30,231 nt of DNA, taken from IMG/VR virus record IMGVR_UViG_2695420421_000005. One strand, given 5' to 3'. The stretch comes from a virus (lineage: Duplodnaviria > Heunggongvirae > Uroviricota > Caudoviricetes). A program made the translations under genes and the position numbers. Of this stretch, positions 4,141-30,231 are shown one piece after another; the stretch's first letter is position 1, and each line of letters opens with the position of its first letter. Under the pieces are notes generated by a model. It worked only from the letters and a program-made list of their open reading frames with translations. It was not told the DNA's origin and searched no databases.

Positions 4141-4332
4141 TTACTCCCCGTTCACCGAAAAATCACGATAGAAACGTTTCCACATACGATAAGTCTGCGC
4201 GAGTTGTTCACCACGAAACATCGCCTTCCTGGCCTTCATGTTTTCCTTGTGAGACTTTCGATCTATGAACCAAAACCATTGCTGGAACACACAAAGCAAG
4301 AGACACAAAGATAATATCCACTGATTACCCAT
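4141..4332 (-). CDS. Possible small membrane protein (63 aa) translationally coupled to repA
   Basis: ATG at 4332 overlaps the repA stop; hydrophobic ILSLCLLLCVFQQWFWFI followed by a basic tail; short, so uncertain. Confidence 0.3.
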   Translation of the reverse strand: MGNQWILSLCLLLCVFQQWFWFIDRKSHKENMKARKAMFRGEQLAQTYRMWKRFYRDFSVNGE

Positions 4333-7300
4333 AGAAAGCGCCCTGCTCTTCGTAGCTGCATGAGCTATTCCCGGTAATGTATTCTCGTAACCGCCGCAGT
4401 TCATTGCTGGACAAGTGATCCATGAACTCTGTGAGGTACAGAGATGCAAACGTCATAGCTATGCTGGTTGATGACCATGATGACATAGTGGCCAGCTCCT
4501 CACCGGAAAGCGCACTCATCGCCCAGGACTCAGGAACAGCCACCGGCAATACGGCCAAAGCCTCAGAAATTACTGAATGAGGGGCGTTTTGAACCTGCTC
4601 GTTTGTGGATCGCGTTTTATCATCCATATATATATTGAGATCCAAATCGCGATCCATTTCGATGGCTGTCTTCTCGGCTTTACGCGTTTTTAGGGTTAGG
4701 CCATCTTTCTGACGCTGAACAAGAATATCCAGCATAAATGCCGCTGATTCAGGCTCAACAAAACGCAAGGTTGGACGCTTATCGCCGTCTCTGCCGCGAC
4801 GTTTACCTGTTTTAAGGCCAAGAGAGTCGCAAATGTTTTTAAACAACGCTTCCGGCACTTTAGGCTTCCCTTTTGGCGTCATAAAACCACCAATGTGCAG
4901 AACGTTATTCAACAGGTCACGGCGTTCGGCTGTCATGAGATTATCTCGAGCGAATTTGAGACGCTCCTGAGTCGCCTCGCCGGTCATAGTCTCAGGGTTG
5001 ATACCGCAGTCGATAAAGTACTGCCGGAGAGTTGCTGATTTAAGCGCATAGAAACCGCGCGCCCCGACTTCAACAGTAGGAGTAGCTTTTACCTTGTGAT
5101 CGATTATTCCAGGGAATTTAGTTTTAAAGACATCATCAGCCTGCTCGCGAGTCATCGCGGTCACTACAAAATATTGCCACTGTCCCGCCTGACGGTATGC
5201 GTAGGTAAAATTGATGGCTGCTTCTTCCCGGTCGTAACGACGAGCTGTTACCTCATCTAAAAGCATTGTTTCATAGCGGCGAACTTTGTCTCGAGCACCA
5301 TCGAAATAGAATTTCAGTGTGCCTTCTTCAACCGGTAGTTTCAGTTCGTTTTCAATATCCCAGCGGACAAGTTTTGCCTGTTCTTCAAGCGTCAGCGCGC
5401 GTTTTTTTAGCAGTTCTTCACGCTCTGATTCTTGTGGAGTTTCTGTATTGAGGTGCAGATCCAGTGTCTGTTCCCACACAATATCCCGCGCTTCTTTACG
5501 CAGATCTTTACCGATATCATTCGCAGCATAATCGGTGCCCAGCGGCGATACCTTATAACCGTCGCTGTGCATGATGCAGATCATGTTGCTGGCGTAGTCG
5601 TTACGCGCAGTCGCTTCAATTGCGGCTGCTTTAATTTTCATCCTGGTAAAGTCGGTATTGGCCACCCCCATTGATATACGGTCGCCATCGAAAATGACAT
5701 CCGTCAGTTCACCGTTCATACCTGCGGTAGCAAGCAATGCCTGGGCGAATGCTCGTTCTATTTTTTGCGGGTCAGTTTCACGTTTTGCACGAGCTTTATC
5801 AAAGCCGATAATAAATTCTTTTGCTGTACGGTCGCGGCGTAGCATTTGCACTGCGTCGCTGGGTACAACTTCACCACAGAACATGCCGAAATGACGGTCA
5901 AAATGTTTTTGCTCAATCGACACGCCGGATGAAATAGACGGGCTATAAATCAGGCCGTCGTATTTTTTGACCATCTTTTTCGGTTGATTGGTAAATGCTT
6001 CAACTTCTGGCTCTGGTTTGTTTTTCTGGTTTACACACAGAAATTTCTTACCAGGAAAATGCATTCTCAGGGTGGCTGTCACATCTTCTGCAAAGGTGGA
6101 GCTGTCGGTGGCCAACATGATTTTTTCGCCATCCGATACAGCTTTCACCACCTCGGTCATGATGCGATCTTTTTCTGTATAAAAAACCCGGATTGGCTCA
6201 CCTGTTTCGCGGTTGCGAACATCAACAGGTAATTCAATTACGTGGATCTGCAGCCATGCCGGTAAACCTAGTTCTTCACGGCGTTTCATAGCCAGTTCAG
6301 CCAGGTCAACCAGCAGATCGTTCGCATCAGCATCCACCATGATTGGGTGTTGTTCCGTTCTGGCCAGCGCGTCAATTAGCGTATTGAATACAGCCACCGG
6401 GTTTTCCATAGCCCGACCGGAAAGAACGGCACGTAGCCCTTGTGTGGCCTCGTCAAAGCCAAAATAGTCGTGCTGGCGCATCAACGGTTGCCAGCAGTTT
6501 TTAACAATCGAGTTTATGCAGATGGTCAGTTTACTGGCGTATGGAGCCATTTCCTGATAGCCAGGGTCCTGATAGTGCAGGATATCGGCTTTTACACCTT
6601 TTCCTTCAGTCATCATTTCCCACAGGCCACCAATAAGGGAAACACGGTGAGCTACAGAGATACCGCGTTCTGAGCTATGCATTAACGGTCGTAACAATCC
6701 AGTAGATTTGCCGGAACCCATACCAGCACGAACGATGACGATCCCCTGTAGTGATTGCACGTACTTCAGGACGTCATCGGTCATTACCGAAGTTTCAAAA
6801 CGCTTATAGGTGATATGTTGAGGGCGTTTATTGGGATCAGTTATGCGTTCGCTGAAAGAGCGCGGAGCCTGGGCAATACGGCACTTTTTATTCAGGCGAC
6901 GGGCAATGTGGTCTTTTACCGTAGCGCGATAGATATTTTCCAGCCCCATTTCACGCAGAACGATGCAGAACATGTTAAACAAATCTGACGGACTGTTAGG
7001 AACCGGACAGGTTAGCATGCCAATATCCACCGCTCTCAGCAGCTCTTTGGCAAAAGTACGACGGTTATCCCGCTTAATTGTCTTCAGGCGGTTGAGCGTC
7101 AGAGATAGCAAATCAGTGCCGGTTTTCAGGCGGTTTGCTGTTGCAAATAGTTGACGTGCTGTTTCACGAAGTCCACGTAGTTTGTGCAGGTCGTTGAAGT
7201 CACTGCACTCCATTTGCGGATCGTCTTCAAAAGTTGGATAGACGCAGCGGACATCGTTGAATTTCGATAAGATTTCATAGCCAGTCCGCAGGCCGGTATT

Positions 7301-8320
7301 CCCTTTTCCTTCTGTGGCTGATTTCCGGTCATTATCCAGTGCGCAGGTGATTTTTGCCGCCGGGTACATGTTTACCAGTTGTTCCACAACATGAACCATG
7401 TTGTTAGCGGATACAGCGACAACCACAGCGTCAAAGCGTTTATCTTTTTTCGTGGCAAGCCAGATGGATGCACCAGTAGCAAAACCTTCTGTAACAGCGA
7501 TGTTTTGCGCCCCTTTCAGCTCACCGATAACAAAGCAGGCACCGACGAAATCGCCGCTGGTTACTGCGCTGGTCTGGTATTTCCCACCTTGTTTGTCGAT
7601 TCGCTGCCAACCCACAATACGACCATCGTAACGACCGTCCAGGTGAGCCAGAGGGATAGCCATATATGTGGTTGGCCCCCGGTTCCATTTCGCACTGTCG
7701 TGACTGGTCACGCGACGCACATCACATGAACTAAAAACGTCACGAATACCTTTTTTAATCGCATATGGCCATGAGCCGTCTTCTGCAGGAGCATGTTCCC
7801 ACGCGCTGTGGAATGCCAGCCATCCCAGCAAACGTTCATGGTCCATTTGGTTGTTTTTCAGGTCATTAATTCGTTTTTGTTCTTCACGGCGACGACGTGC
7901 TTCGGCCTGACGTTTTATTCTTGCCCGTTCTTCTTCCGGTTGTGCGACCACGGTCGCATTATTCCGTTGTTGCTCACGGCGATATTCAGAAAACAGGAAG
8001 GAGAAACCGCTCCATGAGCCAGCATCGCTGCCTTTATGGACGAAGTTAATGAACGGGTAATCAATCCCTTTGCTGTGTTCCAGCCGGGAGTAAATTTCTA
8101 CGCGTCCTTTGAGGCTCTTTTCGAGAGCTTCTGGAGATGTTTTATTGTATGAAGAGTAACGCTCAACACCCCCGCGAGGGTTGAGTTGGATGTTGTCGGA
8201 ACAGGCAGACCAGTTGATACCAGCCATCTGTGCCAGCTCGGTTAGTTCATCCCGTGCTGCTTCAATTAGCGAGAACGGATCGCTGCCAAAGCGATCCGCA
8301 TAGAAATCGTTTAATGTCAT
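4325..8320 (-). CDS. repA: Replication protein RepA (primase-helicase), 1331 aa
   Basis: Size and position match N15 RepA (~1320 aa); Walker A motif GMGSGKST in the helicase region; sits between the telN side and the cB immunity region as in N15. Confidence 0.93.
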   Translation of the reverse strand: MTLNDFYADRFGSDPFSLIEAARDELTELAQMAGINWSACSDNIQLNPRGGVERYSSYNKTSPEALEKSLKGRVEIYSRLEHSKGIDYPFINFVHKGSDAGSWSGFSFLFSEYRREQQRNNATVVAQPEEERARIKRQAEARRRREEQKRINDLKNNQMDHERLLGWLAFHSAWEHAPAEDGSWPYAIKKGIRDVFSSCDVRRVTSHDSAKWNRGPTTYMAIPLAHLDGRYDGRIVGWQRIDKQGGKYQTSAVTSGDFVGACFVIGELKGAQNIAVTEGFATGASIWLATKKDKRFDAVVVAVSANNMVHVVEQLVNMYPAAKITCALDNDRKSATEGKGNTGLRTGYEILSKFNDVRCVYPTFEDDPQMECSDFNDLHKLRGLRETARQLFATANRLKTGTDLLSLTLNRLKTIKRDNRRTFAKELLRAVDIGMLTCPVPNSPSDLFNMFCIVLREMGLENIYRATVKDHIARRLNKKCRIAQAPRSFSERITDPNKRPQHITYKRFETSVMTDDVLKYVQSLQGIVIVRAGMGSGKSTGLLRPLMHSSERGISVAHRVSLIGGLWEMMTEGKGVKADILHYQDPGYQEMAPYASKLTICINSIVKNCWQPLMRQHDYFGFDEATQGLRAVLSGRAMENPVAVFNTLIDALARTEQHPIMVDADANDLLVDLAELAMKRREELGLPAWLQIHVIELPVDVRNRETGEPIRVFYTEKDRIMTEVVKAVSDGEKIMLATDSSTFAEDVTATLRMHFPGKKFLCVNQKNKPEPEVEAFTNQPKKMVKKYDGLIYSPSISSGVSIEQKHFDRHFGMFCGEVVPSDAVQMLRRDRTAKEFIIGFDKARAKRETDPQKIERAFAQALLATAGMNGELTDVIFDGDRISMGVANTDFTRMKIKAAAIEATARNDYASNMICIMHSDGYKVSPLGTDYAANDIGKDLRKEARDIVWEQTLDLHLNTETPQESEREELLKKRALTLEEQAKLVRWDIENELKLPVEEGTLKFYFDGARDKVRRYETMLLDEVTARRYDREEAAINFTYAYRQAGQWQYFVVTAMTREQADDVFKTKFPGIIDHKVKATPTVEVGARGFYALKSATLRQYFIDCGINPETMTGEATQERLKFARDNLMTAERRDLLNNVLHIGGFMTPKGKPKVPEALFKNICDSLGLKTGKRRGRDGDKRPTLRFVEPESAAFMLDILVQRQKDGLTLKTRKAEKTAIEMDRDLDLNIYMDDKTRSTNEQVQNAPHSVISEALAVLPVAVPESWAMSALSGEELATMSSWSSTSIAMTFASLYLTEFMDHLSSNELRRLREYITGNSSCSYEEQGAFYG
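7943..7958. repeat. sopC-like centromere-type inverted repeat TGCGACC-AC-GGTCGCA (copy 1, inside repA coding sequence)
   Basis: 7-bp inverted arms with 2-bp spacer, same architecture as the F sopC core TGGGACC-AC-GGTCCCA; five copies in this window. Confidence 0.5.
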
Positions 8321-8443: not shown

Positions 8444-8471
8444 CCCGAGTTTGCCGACTCGGGTTTTTTTT
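8444..8471. terminator. Intrinsic terminator in the repA upstream/leader region, potentially bidirectional
   Basis: Stem CCCGAGT/ACTCGGG with 6-nt loop followed by T8 on the plus strand; on the minus strand the same hairpin is followed by TCCTTTTC and lies downstream of cB and upstream of repA. Confidence 0.65.
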
Positions 8472-8565
8472 CGTCTTTTTTCTGCTGCTGTAACCTGAGT
8501 CAACCCACAGAACATATGCTCTGCATTAAACCAGATTTACAGCAAACAATAAACCCCGTATTAAG

Positions 8566-10428: not shown

Positions 10429-10612
10429 GCAGGGGCCGATGACGCATGATGAAGCAGAGCGTCTTTCAGATAATTATCGGCGGCGTGGTAAGAAAGTTCT
10501 GGTTGTTCGTTCTGATTTTTTAGGTGATGGATATTGCGTTTATGTTCATTTACCTGAATCAGAAAGAACGCCAAAACCATCCAGAACATATCAACAGAAA
10601 ATTTGGGTATAG
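10409..10612 (+). CDS. Hypothetical protein (67 aa)
   Basis: ORF with internal ATG; no clear RBS; no family recognised. Confidence 0.4.
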   Translation: MKITPFKQGPMTHDEAERLSDNYRRRGKKVLVVRSDFLGDGYCVYVHLPESERTPKPSRTYQQKIWV

Positions 10613-17785: not shown

Positions 17786-18219
17786 GCAGGGTAACCGCGA
17801 TTATCTCCGCTCTGGTTATTTGCATCATCGTCTGCCTGTCGTGGGCTGTTAATCATTACCGTGATAACGCCATCGCCTACAAAGAGCAGCGCGATAAAGC
17901 CACATCCACAATCGCTGATATGCAGAAGCGTCAACGTGACGTAGCAGAACTCGATGCCAGATATACAAAGGAGCTTGCTGATGCTAACGCGACTATCGAA
18001 AGCCTCCGTGCTGATGTTTCTGCTGGGCGTAAGCGCCTGCAAGTCGCCGCCACCTGTGCAAAGTCAACGACCGGAGCCAGCGGCATGGGCAATGGAGAAA
18101 GCCCAAGACTTACAGCAGATGCTGAACTCAATTATTACCGTCTCCGAAGTGGGATCGACAGGATAACTGCGCAGGTTAACTACTTGCAGGAATACATCAA
18201 GACGCAATGCCTGAATTAA
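17782..18219 (+). CDS. Rz: i-spanin Rz (145 aa)
   Basis: N-terminus [31 protein letters not shown] as in lambda Rz; ATGA overlap with the endolysin gene. Confidence 0.9.
17981..18166 (+). CDS. Rz1: o-spanin Rz1 lipoprotein embedded in Rz (+1 frame), ~61 aa
   Basis: Signal peptide with lipobox-like ...LLGVSAC, proline-rich mature region; AAGGAG 7 nt upstream of ATG 17981 (the ORF track also allows 17954). Confidence 0.75.
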
Positions 18220-20835: not shown

Positions 20836-21355
20836 ATGGAAGTCAACAAAAAGCAGCTGGCTGATATTTTCGGTGCGAGTATCCGTACCATTCAGAACTG
20901 GCAGGAGCAGGGAATGCCCGTTTTGCGAGGCGGTGGCAAGGGTAATGAGGTGCTTTATGATTCTGCCGCCGTCATAAAATGGTATGCCGAAAGGGATGCT
21001 GAAATTGAGAACGAAAAGCTGCGCCGGGAGGTTGAAGAACTGCGGCTGGCCAGCGAGGCAGATCTTCACCCCGGAACACTTGAATTTGAGCGCCATCGCC
21101 TGACTCGTGCTCAGGCGACGGCGCAGGAACTGAAAAATGCCAAAGAATCGGCTGAAGTGGTGGAAACCGCATTCTGTACTTTCGTGCTGTCGCGTATAGC
21201 AAGGGAAATATCCAGTATTCTCGACGGTATTCCTCTGTCGGTGCAGCGACGTTTTCCTGAGCTGGATAACCGGCATATTGATTTCCTGAAACGGGATATC
21301 ATCAAAGCCATGAACAAAGCAGCCGCGCTGGATGAACTGATACCGGGGTTGCTGA

Positions 21356-21381
<26 letters not shown>
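20836..21381 (+). CDS. nu1: Terminase small subunit Nu1 (lambda-like), 181 aa
   Basis: Near-identical to lambda Nu1 (MEVNKKQLADIFGASIRTIQNWQEQGMPVLRGGGKGNEVLYDSAAVIKWYAERDAEIENEKLRREVEELR...). Confidence 0.95.
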
Positions 21382-25062
<3,681 letters not shown>

Positions 25063-25082
<20 letters not shown>

Positions 25083-25584
25083 TCTCCCGCATATTGCCAG
25101 CATGGCTTTTAATGAGCCGCTGATGCTTGAACCCGCCTATGCGCGGGTTTTCTTTTGTGCGCTTGCAGGCCAGCTTGGGATCAGCCGCCTGACGGATGCA
25201 GTATCCGGCGACAGCCTGACTGCCGGAGAGGCACCCGCGGCGCTGGCGTTATCCGGTGATGATGACGGACCACGACAGGCCCGCAGTTATCAGGTCATGA
25301 ACGGCATCGCCGTGCTGCCGGTGTCCGGTACGCTGGTCAGTCGGACGCGGGCGCTGCAGCCGTATTCGGGAATGACTGGTTACAACGGCATTATCGCCCG
25401 TCTGCAACAGGCTGCCAGTGACCCGATGGTGGACGGCATTCTGCTCGATATGGATACGCCAGGCGGAATGGTGGCGGGGGCATTTGACTGCGCTGACATC
25501 ATCGCCCGTGTGCGTGACATAAAGCCGGTATGGGCGCTGGCAGTCGCTGGACATATGCTGGCGGTAAGCAATGGAAAGGGCTGA
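25063..25584 (+). pseudogene. C: Truncated head protease/scaffold gene C (lambda-like): first ~160 codons then an unrelated 13-codon tail and stop
   Basis: GTG start and MTAELRNLPHIASMAFNEPLMLEPAYARVFFCALAGQLGIS... match lambda gpC up to ...[11 protein letters not shown]; sequence then switches to the 3' end of an endolysin gene. Confidence 0.85.
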
Positions 25585-26137: not shown

Positions 26138-26488
26138 ATGCCATCACTAATCCCACGTGCCTGCCGTAAGCGTGGATGTGCAGGTACAACCACAGACAGT
26201 TCGGGTTACTGCGATAAACATCGCGGTGAAGGCTGGGTGCAGCACCAGCGCGGACTGAGCCGCCACCAGCGTGGCTATGGCTCAAAATGGACGGTGATTC
26301 GTGCCCGTATTCTGAAGCGCGATAAAGGTCTGTGTCAGTTGTGTCTGCGTGTCGGTGTGGTGAGCGAGGCGAAAACCGTCGACCACATCATCCCGAAAGC
26401 GCATGGCGGAACAGACGCAGACAGCAACCTGCAGAGTCTGTGCTGGCCCTGCCATAAAGCGAAAACAGCGCGCGAACGAATCCGGTGA
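26138..26488 (+). CDS. HNH endonuclease (phage packaging-associated), 116 aa
   Basis: HNH motif DHIIPKAHGGTDADSNLQSLCWPCHKAKT; located immediately upstream of terS. Confidence 0.85.
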   Translation: MPSLIPRACRKRGCAGTTTDSSGYCDKHRGEGWVQHQRGLSRHQRGYGSKWTVIRARILKRDKGLCQLCLRVGVVSEAKTVDHIIPKAHGGTDADSNLQSLCWPCHKAKTARERIR

Positions 26489-26506
26489 TAATTATTCTCA
26501 CTTGTA

Positions 26507-26570
26507 GGGAGGGGCGGGGCAAATCCCTGTGACCTGACGTCTTCCGGACTGCCCGCCCCATCGTTTTTTT
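26507..26570 (+). terminator. GC-rich imperfect hairpin plus T7 between the HNH and terS genes (terminator and/or part of the cos region of the HK97-like module)
   Basis: GGGGCGGGGC (26511-26520) pairs with GCCCGCCCC (26551-26559), followed by TTTTTTT at 26564-26570. Confidence 0.4.
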
Positions 26571-26609
26571 ATACCCGCGAAAAATGAAATTTAACCAGGA
26601 GTGCCGCAT

Positions 26610-27104
26610 ATGGCTGGAACGGCGGGGCGTTCCGGGCGTCGCCCCAAGCCAACGGCGCGCAAGGCGCTGGCCGGAAACCCCGGCAAGCGAGCCCTGAACA
26701 AAGATGAACCTGTTTTTACGCCCATCAAAGGTGTTGAGCCACCAGAGTGGTTCGCTGAAGAAGATCTCCCTCTCGCCACGATCATGTGGCAACTGACAAC
26801 CAAAGAACTCTGCGGTCAGGGCCTGCTGTGCGTGACTGACCTGGCGGTACTTGAGCGGTGGTGCGTGGCCTATGAGTTCTGGCGACGTGCCGTGAAAAAT
26901 ATTGCCATACAGGGCAACACCATCACCGGTGCAATGGGCGGCAGGGTCAAAAATCCGGAGCTGACCGCCAAAAAAGAACAGGAGTCCGAGATGAGCAGCA
27001 CGGGGGCAATGCTCGGACTCGACCCCAGCAGCCGCCAGCGTCTGATTGGCCTGGCGGGGCAGAAGAAAGCCACTAACCCGTTTCTGAAAATTATCGAATC
27101 ATGA
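26610..27104 (+). CDS. Terminase small subunit (P27/HK97 family), 164 aa from ATG 26610
   Basis: N-terminus [30 protein letters not shown] typical of P27-family small terminases; AGGAG 8 nt upstream. Confidence 0.85.
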
Positions 27105-28834
27105 GCCGGAAATCTTACCCCAACGTAAATGCTGCAAATCAGTATGCCCGGGATGTCGTGCGCGGAAAGATTGTTGCCTGCCAGTTTGTGATTCAGGCCT
27201 GCCAGCGCCATCTTGATGACCTGATGGCGGAAAAAAGTAAGTCGTTTCGTTACCGCTTCGACAAGGACCTGGCTGAACGGGCCGCGAAATTTATTCAGCT
27301 GTTGCCGCACACCAAGGGGGAGTGGGCATTCAAACGGATGCCCATCACGCTGGAGCCGTGGCAGCTATTTGTGATCTGCTGTGCGTTTGGCTGGGTCAAT
27401 AAAGGCACCCGGTTGCGCCGCTTCCGGGAGGTGTACACCGAAATCCCCCGTAAGAACGGCAAATCAGCAATCTCTGCCGGTGTTGCCCTGTATTGTTTTG
27501 CCTGTGATAACGAGTTTGGCGCGGAAGTGTATTCCGGTGCCACGACAGAGAAACAGGCGTGGGAAGTCTTTCGCCCGGCGCGACTGATGTGTAAACGCAC
27601 ACCCATGCTGACGGAAGCGTTCGGGATTGAGGTTAACGCCTCAAACATGAACCGTCCGGAGGATGGCGCGCGGTTTGAACCGCTGATCGGCAACCCAGGT
27701 GATGGTTCATCACCCCACTGTGCCGTGGTTGATGAATATCACGAGCATGCCACCGATGCGCTTTATACCACAATGCTTACCGGGATGGGGGCGCGACGTC
27801 AGCCACTGATGTGGGCCATCACCACCGCCGGGTACAACATTGAGGGGCCGTGCTACGACAAGCGGCGGGAAGTCATCGAGATGCTCAACGGCTCGGTGCC
27901 TAACGATGAACTGTTCGGGATCATCTATACCGTTGATGAAGGTGACGACTGGACCGGCCCGCAGGTGCTGGAAAAAGCCAATCCAAATATTGGCGTGTCG
28001 GTTTATCGCGAATTTTTGTTAAGTCAGCAGCAGCGTGCGAAAAATAACGCCCGTCTGGCAAACGTCTTTAAAACAAAACACCTCAATATCTGGGTGTCGG
28101 CGCGTTCGGCGTATTTCAACTTGGTGAGCTGGCAGAGCTGCGAGGATAAATCACTGACCCTTGAGCAGTTCGAGGGGCAGCCGTGCATTCTGGCCTTTGA
28201 CCTGGCGCGTAAGCTGGATATGAACAGCATGGCGCGACTTTATACCCGCGAGATTGACGGTAAAACGCATTACTACAGTGTGGCCCCGCGTTTCTGGGTA
28301 CCGTATGACACGGTGTACAGCGTCGAGAAAAATGAAGATCGACGGACAGCCGAACGCTTTCAGAAATGGGTGGAAATGGGCGTTCTGACCGTTACCGATG
28401 GTGCGGAGGTGGATTATCGCTACATCCTCGAGGAGGCCAAAGCGGCGAACAAAATCAGCCCGGTCAGTGAGTCACCCATCGACCCCTTCGGGGCGACCGG
28501 GTTGTCACATGACCTTGCTGATGAAGACCTGAATCCCGTCACTATCGTCCAGAACTTCACCAATATGTCCGATCCGATGAAAGAGCTGGAAGCAGCGATT
28601 GAATCGGGACGTTTTCATCATGACGGCAATCCCATCATGACCTGGTGTATCGGCAACGTGGTCGGCAAAAACATGCCGGGTAACGATGATGTGGTGAAAC
28701 CCGTCAAAGAGCAGGCGGAAAACAAAATCGATGGTGCAGTTGCGCTGATTATGGCGGTTGGCAGAGCCATGCTGTACGAGAAAGAAGACACGCTGTCTGA
28801 CCACATTGAGTCCTACGGGATCCGCTCGCTTTAA
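27101..28834 (+). CDS. Terminase large subunit (HK97-like), 577 aa
   Basis: Size, position and ATGA coupling to terS; followed by a portal gene. Confidence 0.85.
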
Positions 28835-28845
28835 CTGAGGTAATT

Positions 28846-29028
28846 ATGATCATGCTGATTCTCGCGCCTCTGGTGGGCGTGCTGGGTGCGCTTTTGCTGG
28901 CGTATGGTGCCTGGCTGATTTATCCCCCGGCGGGTTTTGTTGTTGCCGGGGCGCTGTGCCTGTTCTGGTCGTGGCTGGTGGCGCGATATCTCGACCGTAC
29001 ACGGCAGTCTGTCGGCGGAGGTAAATAG
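28846..29028 (+). CDS. Small hydrophobic protein (60 aa) between terL and portal
   Basis: Two hydrophobic segments; TGAGG upstream of ATG. Confidence 0.55.
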
Positions 29029-30184: not shown

Positions 30185-30231
30185 GGATCAGTTGACCGAT
30201 CCAGTGGCTGTGTAAGAATCCGGAAACGCTC

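Follow-up and report, generated by a model that had tools for sequence, protein, structure and literature searches.

A probable SfV/SfI/phiP27-type cos site between the HNH endonuclease and small terminase genes of a mosaic phage contig

We analysed a 30,231-nt stretch of tailed-phage DNA (Caudoviricetes; IMG/VR record IMGVR_UViG_2695420421_000005), here called the window, which is the complete contig CXFA01000066.1 of the draft assembly GCA_001257695.1. ORF and Pfam analysis placed the interval 26489-26609 between an HNH endonuclease gene and terS. The HNH gene (26138-26488, + strand; Pfam HNH, E=1.6e-16) encodes a gp74-like packaging accessory nuclease with 34% identity to HK97 gp74 (E=2e-10). 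The terS gene, encoding the small terminase of the P27 family (26610-27104, + strand; Pfam Terminase_4, E=3.7e-20), starts with the ATG at 26610 behind a Shine-Dalgarno sequence AGGAG at 26597-26601, and its product is 98-99% identical to the SfII and SfIV TerS proteins. The adjacent terL gene (27101-28834, + strand) encodes the large terminase (ATPase and nuclease), with both Pfam families of HK97 gp2, TerL_ATPase and TerL_nuclease. The HNH, terS and terL genes are all full length in the window, which ends at 30231 within the portal gene (Pfam Phage_portal) located 3' of terL. With a cos in the interval, the resulting gene order HNH-cos-terS-terL-portal is the HK97 order. A 60-codon ORF for a very hydrophobic predicted peptide lies between terL and the portal gene (28846-29028); the source assembly calls it as a gene, and no Pfam hit is recorded for it.

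A sequence-only reading of the window had noticed a GC-rich inverted repeat followed by a T-run between the HNH gene and terS, and these are present. We detected a perfect 8-bp inverted repeat, GGGGCGGG at 26511-26518 and CCCGCCCC at 26552-26559, with 33 nt between the arms, which in folding lengthens to 9 pairs with one bulged G. The T7 run at 26564-26570 is separated from the right arm by 4 nt (ATCG). The pattern GGGGCGGG-N28-38-CCCGCCCC has a single occurrence in the window and was found in none of 100 dinucleotide-preserving shuffles, and so it is not due to chance.

The identity of the interval was established by comparison with relatives whose DNA ends have been mapped. Both termini of the SfI virion DNA have been sequenced and compared with the prophage, leaving a 10-nt gap, 5'-TGCCCGCCCC-3' (PMC3636060). 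Positions 26550-26559 of the window, TGCCCGCCCC, are exactly this 10-nt gap and contain the right arm of the repeat. The SfI record terminates with ...GGACTGCCCGCCCC, and SfI base 1 aligns to window position 26560. SfI, SfII, SfIV and SfV have identical cos (PMC3851460), and according to megablast against phage records the cos-terS stretch of the window is 97.5-98.5% identical to these four phages. The HNH side of the module has 93.7% DNA identity to the Stx2e phage phiP27, in whose record (NC_003356, misc_feature 21806-21815) the sequence CGCCCGCCCC, homologous to window 26550-26559 and with one mismatch to TGCCCGCCCC, is annotated as 'cos-site'. Taken with the HNH/P27-family terS/terL/portal context and the flanking boxes at conserved spacing (described below), the mapped decamer places the site in the SfV/SfI/phiP27 group of cos sites by all the features that could be tested. 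We conclude that the interval is very probably the cos of an SfV/SfI/phiP27-type (HK97-like, HNH-assisted) packaging module, meaning that packaging by the second module of the window is of the cos type, not headful. The site is an ordinary cos, of a known and very common kind.

The cohesive-end sequence at 26550-26559 (+ strand) is the cosN equivalent. The nicks would fall between 26559 and 26560 on the top strand and opposite 26549 and 26550 on the bottom strand, producing a 10-nt 3' overhang, so that the expected virion ends are fixed between 26559 and 26560. We infer the 3' polarity from the SfI data, since the decamer is absent from both run-off reads (a gap, not an overlap), and from the column-for-column alignment with the HK97 end; the SfI paper gives the 10-nt length without stating the overhang polarity (PMC3636060). 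The starts of database records were also considered as evidence for end positions and were rejected, with the SfV, SfIV, ST64B and Burkholderia vB_E438 records starting at differing places. The SfV, SfIV and vB_E438 records begin within the spacer, at 7-15 nt before the cohesive end, and the ST64B record begins just before terS; record starts in the SfV-type group are conventions, not mapped ends.

The site was compared with those of the Shigella phages and phiP27. SfI, SfII, SfIV and SfV share with the window the decamer TGCCCGCCCC, the downstream T7 and ACCCGCGAAAAATGAAA, and the HNH-cos-terS-terL order, but differ by two base changes in the region of the G-box (GGGGC vs GGGTC; TCCCTG vs TCTCTG) and in the upstream context, the module of the window being joined to an N15-like element. 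In phiP27 the cos has the homologous position and architecture, with the G-box and the ACCCGCGAAA box conserved, whereas its TerS is only 48% identical, its T-run is cut to T5, and AAA stands before the T5.

The whole cos unit is about 84 bp long (26506-26589, + strand), as delimited by the extent carried by phage satellites. Its upstream element is the G-box GGGAGGGGCGGGGCAAATC (26507-26525, + strand), which contains the left arm of the repeat and is conserved in 48 distinct relatives. The G-box was also detected in Klebsiella, Pseudomonas, Burkholderia, Moraxella and Psychrobacter phages and in HK97, at a near-constant distance to the cut; in the window it spans -53 to -35, about four helical turns upstream. 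By analogy of position, we propose the G-box as a cosQ-like recognition element that may act in termination or second-strand nicking. The G-box is followed by a variable spacer (26526-26549, + strand), whose sequence is free to vary among the relatives, whose length is nearly constant, and which ends in an invariant AC (26548-26549) immediately 5' of the cohesive end; A51 and C52 of the 48-sequence alignment are invariant.

Downstream of the cohesive end, the T7 run (26564-26570, + strand) occupies +5 to +11 from the top-strand nick. A run of T5-T7 is present here in phiP27 and in the Klebsiella, Pseudomonas, Moraxella and Psychrobacter phages, and the Burkholderia phage has T4 only; these distant relatives were found via TerS protein similarity. 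Rather than the tail of a terminator, the T7 appears to be a conserved element of cos. It is followed by the ATACCCGCGAAAAATGAAA box (26571-26589, + strand), with ACCCGCG at +14 to +20 and A5 at +21 to +25, a proposed TerS site (cosB equivalent). This box is kept by the satellites, and its position matches the HK97 TerS-binding site at +15 to +29. Of the 22 bases 3' of the cohesive end, ATCGTTTTTTTA[T/C]ACCCGCGAAA, all but one are shared by the window and a Pseudomonas phage with a TerS about 50% identical to that of the window. Position, composition and conservation make the ACCCGCGAAA box a candidate site of TerS binding.

The conserved order is the G-box GGGAGGGGCGGG(T)CAAA, about 30 variable bases, GAC(Y)GCC..., the T-run and A(Y)ACCCGCGAAA, followed in the relatives by A/T-rich DNA, a Shine-Dalgarno sequence and terS. 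The same box order with nearly the same spacing recurs in Klebsiella, Pseudomonas, Burkholderia and Moraxella phages with TerS proteins 41-50% identical to that of the window. The Psychrobacter phage, whose TerS is in this identity range too, fits loosely, with the G-box and the GACCGCC end present and a degenerate downstream box. In the Vibrio phage H2 PGK-2017 (TerS 49% identical), the HNH gene and terS are 6 nt apart (535-901), so its cos or pac is elsewhere, and the HNH-cos-terS order is not universal in the family. The motif G-box, about 30 nt, GACYGCC..., T-run and ACCCGCGAAA could be used for annotation of the genome ends of many temperate phages.

The sequence-only reading had proposed a comparison with known HK97-family cos sequences, and this comparison supported the cos assignment: the decamer of the window occupies the same alignment columns as the 10-nt end of HK97. 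The HK97 layout is GGGGGGGGGATCAAATC, 27 nt, then GACCGCCGCCAAA on one side of the cut and GTTTGAATTTAACGCTAACCCGATTTTTTTAG on the other. Its terminal 10 nt, CGCCGCCAAA, are columns 54-63, the same as the SfI decamer, and the alignment is gap-free across the stretch. The HK97 cos has 10-nt 3' overhangs (PMC9410871, PMC11331095) and a TerS site at +15 to +29, CTAACCCGATTTTTT, consisting of a GC core plus an A-tract (PMC11331095). The numbering of the 2024 HK97 structural paper equals that of the GenBank record (T16, C:G at 21, A:T at 24-29). Both sites have a G-run and then CAAATC at equal distance upstream, the C-rich decamer, and a GC core that starts about 14-18 bp downstream of the cut and is followed by an A/T tract: in the window, ACCCGCG at +14 to +20 precedes A5, and in HK97, ACCCG at +18 to +22 precedes ATTTTTTTA at +23 to +31. 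The HK97 cos also lies between the HNH gene and terS, but there the HNH gene stops some 320 bp short of the cut, the decamer is different (CGCCGCCAAA), the distance from the cut to the ACCCG core is greater by 4 bp, and the HK97 TerS has no detectable sequence relationship to the window TerS. Judged from these likenesses, the site would work like the HK97 cos; it is not an HK97 cos sensu stricto, because no homology between the two TerS proteins was detected.

The TerS comparison was performed at several levels. The window TerS against HK97 gp1 gave a BLASTP E-value of 6.9 and an hhalign probability of 0.2%, phmmer detected no PDB sequence hit, and gp1 is not in Pfam Terminase_4. The AlphaFold2 model of the window TerS has a mean pLDDT of 76, with the core above 89, and in the Foldseek search of this model against PDB the best TM-score belonged to the HK97 TerS (8pop_A; TM 0.56, E=1.5, not significant). 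In HK97, the TerS bound at 15-29 bp downstream stalls the motor and sets where the cut is made, and it reads a C:G pair beside the A-tract via an arginine clamp, Arg7 and Arg128 (PMC9410871, PMC11331095). A suggestive parallel to R7-S8 and S127-R128 of the HK97 'arginine clamp' is seen in the window TerS, without detectable homology: R7-S8 fall within its basic N-terminal arm, and S141-R142 open its predicted C-terminal helix. S8 and R142 do not vary among 29 members of the family. The agreement in position with the TerS site of HK97 offers a testable way to carry the HK97 model of recognition over to the P27 TerS family, which is much larger.

In HK97, TerL cuts with the help of the HNH protein gp74, which stimulates cos cleavage (PMC9410871). 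A similar mechanism is proposed for the window module. The small terminase would mark the cos on concatemeric phage DNA, and the large terminase together with the HNH protein would nick the two strands at staggered positions flanking TGCCCGCCCC (26550-26559), which would give cohesive ends with 10-nt 3' overhangs. Packaging would run rightward from the new left end, A26560, through terS, terL and the sequence after them. The unit would be tripartite, with the upstream G-box, the cut sequence, and the downstream T-run plus ACCCGCGAAAAA (26564-26584), and this last part is a candidate small-terminase binding and bending site, analogous to +15 to +29 of HK97.

The cos unit was also detected in satellite-like elements. 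NZ_CP148328.1, a 10,790-bp circular E. coli 'plasmid' of satellite-like character, matches the window only at 26506-26589 (96.4% identity). It encodes an integrase, an Icd-like protein, a primase, a prohead protease/capsid fusion and a DUF1441 protein, and neither an HNH gene upstream nor terS downstream of its cos unit (10493-10576); its decamer is TGCCAGCCCC. Similar satellite-like elements in IMG/VR include several variants, one of them with a divergent cos (GACCTCCCGCCTC). The satellites carry just 26506-26589, suggesting that these 84 bp are the functional unit, the G-box included. Carrying the cos of the helper is an established packaging strategy of cos-type PICIs and SaPIs (PMC6739421), and, in parallel to SaPIbov5-type and E. 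coli PICIs, the elements detected here combine an integrase, a primase and a few capsid-related genes with only a helper-type cos. Phages with this type of cos are the presumed helpers of the satellite-like elements, and the same motif could be used to flag satellites hijacking these cos sites.

Among 5,426 complete E. coli genomes, 1,098 contain the cos unit at an identity of at least 94%, in 1,214 places, with up to 4 per genome and 13 on plasmids. Among the matches listed, 25 E. coli records were checked, and none of them has an annotated feature under the cos-unit match.

A broader hypothesis is that the 84-bp unit represents a deep cos architecture of P27-TerS phages in at least six genera, shared in outline with HK97, in which ACCCGCG plus the A/T tract is bound by the arginine clamp, the G-box is cosQ-like, and a satellite family parasitises exactly this unit. 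We put this forward tentatively, as a possible reading that is rather less than probable. No description of a cos architecture shared by P27-TerS phages and HK97 was found in the part of the literature accessible to us, where the motif sequences gave unrelated hits only.

Whether the site is active in this strain is a separate question from its identity. The window is a mosaic: positions 1-25541 are an N15-like linear phage-plasmid, with genes for protelomerase (213-2120), RepA (4325-8320), lambda-type terminase (20836-23281) and portal (23481-25082). This part carries the lambda-type Nu1/A/W/portal genes, and its S49 protease gene is truncated. The left window end adjoins the protelomerase gene, as expected if the contig begins at a linear-plasmid telomere. 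From 25543, the SfV-like module starts inside the 3' end of the lysozyme gene, followed by Rz, HNH, cos and terS; at this left junction the module lacks its holin gene and the greater part of the lysozyme gene. The junction at 25541-25543 is abrupt and without microhomology, and searches of phage, plasmid and E. coli collections gave no record spanning it. Either it reflects a genuine illegitimate recombination that put two packaging modules in tandem, or it is an assembly artefact.

The cos could accordingly be an intact but inert relic in a broken mosaic prophage or phage-plasmid unable to make virions, and given the mosaic contig and the loss of holin and lysozyme sequence, cleavage of the site may not occur at all in this strain. 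The relic hypothesis is in line with the fusion of the N15-like part to the SfV-like module inside the lysozyme gene and with four IMG/VR contigs that are identical to the window right of 25543 and have an intact, normal lysozyme gene. Against it, the HNH, terS and terL genes are full length, the contig ends inside the portal gene with the rest of the module beyond view, and an intact cos is also usable in trans by a co-resident SfV-type phage. We regard the relic as a serious possibility, somewhat short of an even chance, which concerns the activity in situ and leaves the cos identity as it is. For this window itself, the cos identification matters little.

The sequence-only reading had offered cos or terminator as the function of the repeat, with the hairpin as the structural basis. 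A Rho-independent terminator of the lysis/HNH transcript would form the GC stem in RNA and release the polymerase at the T7, and the GC-rich 8-9-bp inverted repeat followed by T7 on the coding strand has this appearance; the stem is also included in the minimum-free-energy fold. The fold of the interval is unremarkable, however, with z-scores that are not significant (z = -1.21 for 121 nt, 24 of 200 shuffles folding at least as well; z = -1.37 for 76 nt, 14 of 200). The terminator scan of the interval, with loops of 3-8 nt allowed, made no call, the loop is 33 nt long, and the T-run begins 4 nt past the stem.

Conservation of the stem was analysed in relatives gathered from viral contigs with the downstream box TTTTTAYACCCGCGAAA as the probe, which left both arms unconstrained; 48 distinct aligned relatives, the nine proposed pairs and 500 column shuffles were used. 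The pairs are formed in 75.1% of cells vs 76.7% in the column shuffles, with 485 of the 500 shuffles reaching or exceeding the observed value. No covariation of the stem was detected across the 48 relatives: the score falls short of the mean of the shuffles, and these have compensatory changes at least as often. In 33 of the 48, the central C-G pair is disrupted. Relatives with GGGGGAGG or GGGGGGGA as the left arm still have CCCGCCCC as the right arm, and one satellite has CCAGCCCC opposite a left arm that is unchanged. The hairpin is not a selected structure, and the complementarity of the arms is a by-product of a G-rich box located upstream of a C-rich cohesive end, so the structural part of the earlier proposal is abandoned.

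In addition, the satellites retain the element without an upstream gene needing termination, and the right arm falls inside the cohesive end in the mapped relatives. We reject the intrinsic terminator, with its 33-nt loop, the ATCG before T7, the unconserved stem and the negative scan, as very improbable. Of the two functions proposed earlier, cos is the one upheld, by the identity to the SfI decamer, the homology to phiP27 and the HK97 alignment columns.

An RNA leader or regulatory structure governing terS translation, which the location directly 5' of terS and its Shine-Dalgarno sequence might bring to mind, has an even smaller, nearly negligible probability: the Rfam search of the interval matched no family even at E<=1, covariation is lacking, the conserved part stops at 26589, upstream of the Shine-Dalgarno sequence, the satellites have the element with unrelated downstream sequence and without terS, and phiP27 retains it though its terS DNA has diverged beyond megablast detection.

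The SfV/SfI/phiP27-type cos was also compared with lambda cos (cosQ-cosN-cosB). The common features are an upstream element, a nicking site, a downstream small-terminase site by terS, and packaging toward terS. Lambda cos has 12-nt 5' overhangs, a Nu1-type TerS and IHF sites, and functions with no HNH protein. The window has instead a 10-nt end, probably 3', a P27-family TerS (Terminase_4) and an adjacent HNH gene, and a lambda-type cos was rejected on these three features. The lambda cosN pattern was sought in the N15-like part of the window, with only a chance-level hit at 18041. In the satellite-like NZ_CP148328.1, where the chance expectation for such matches is 0.69 (up to 2 mismatches) and the indication correspondingly weak, the sequence GGGCGGCGAGCT at 8469-8480, with one mismatch to the lambda cosN overhang and located just 3' of the capsid gene, is possibly a second, lambda-type cos.
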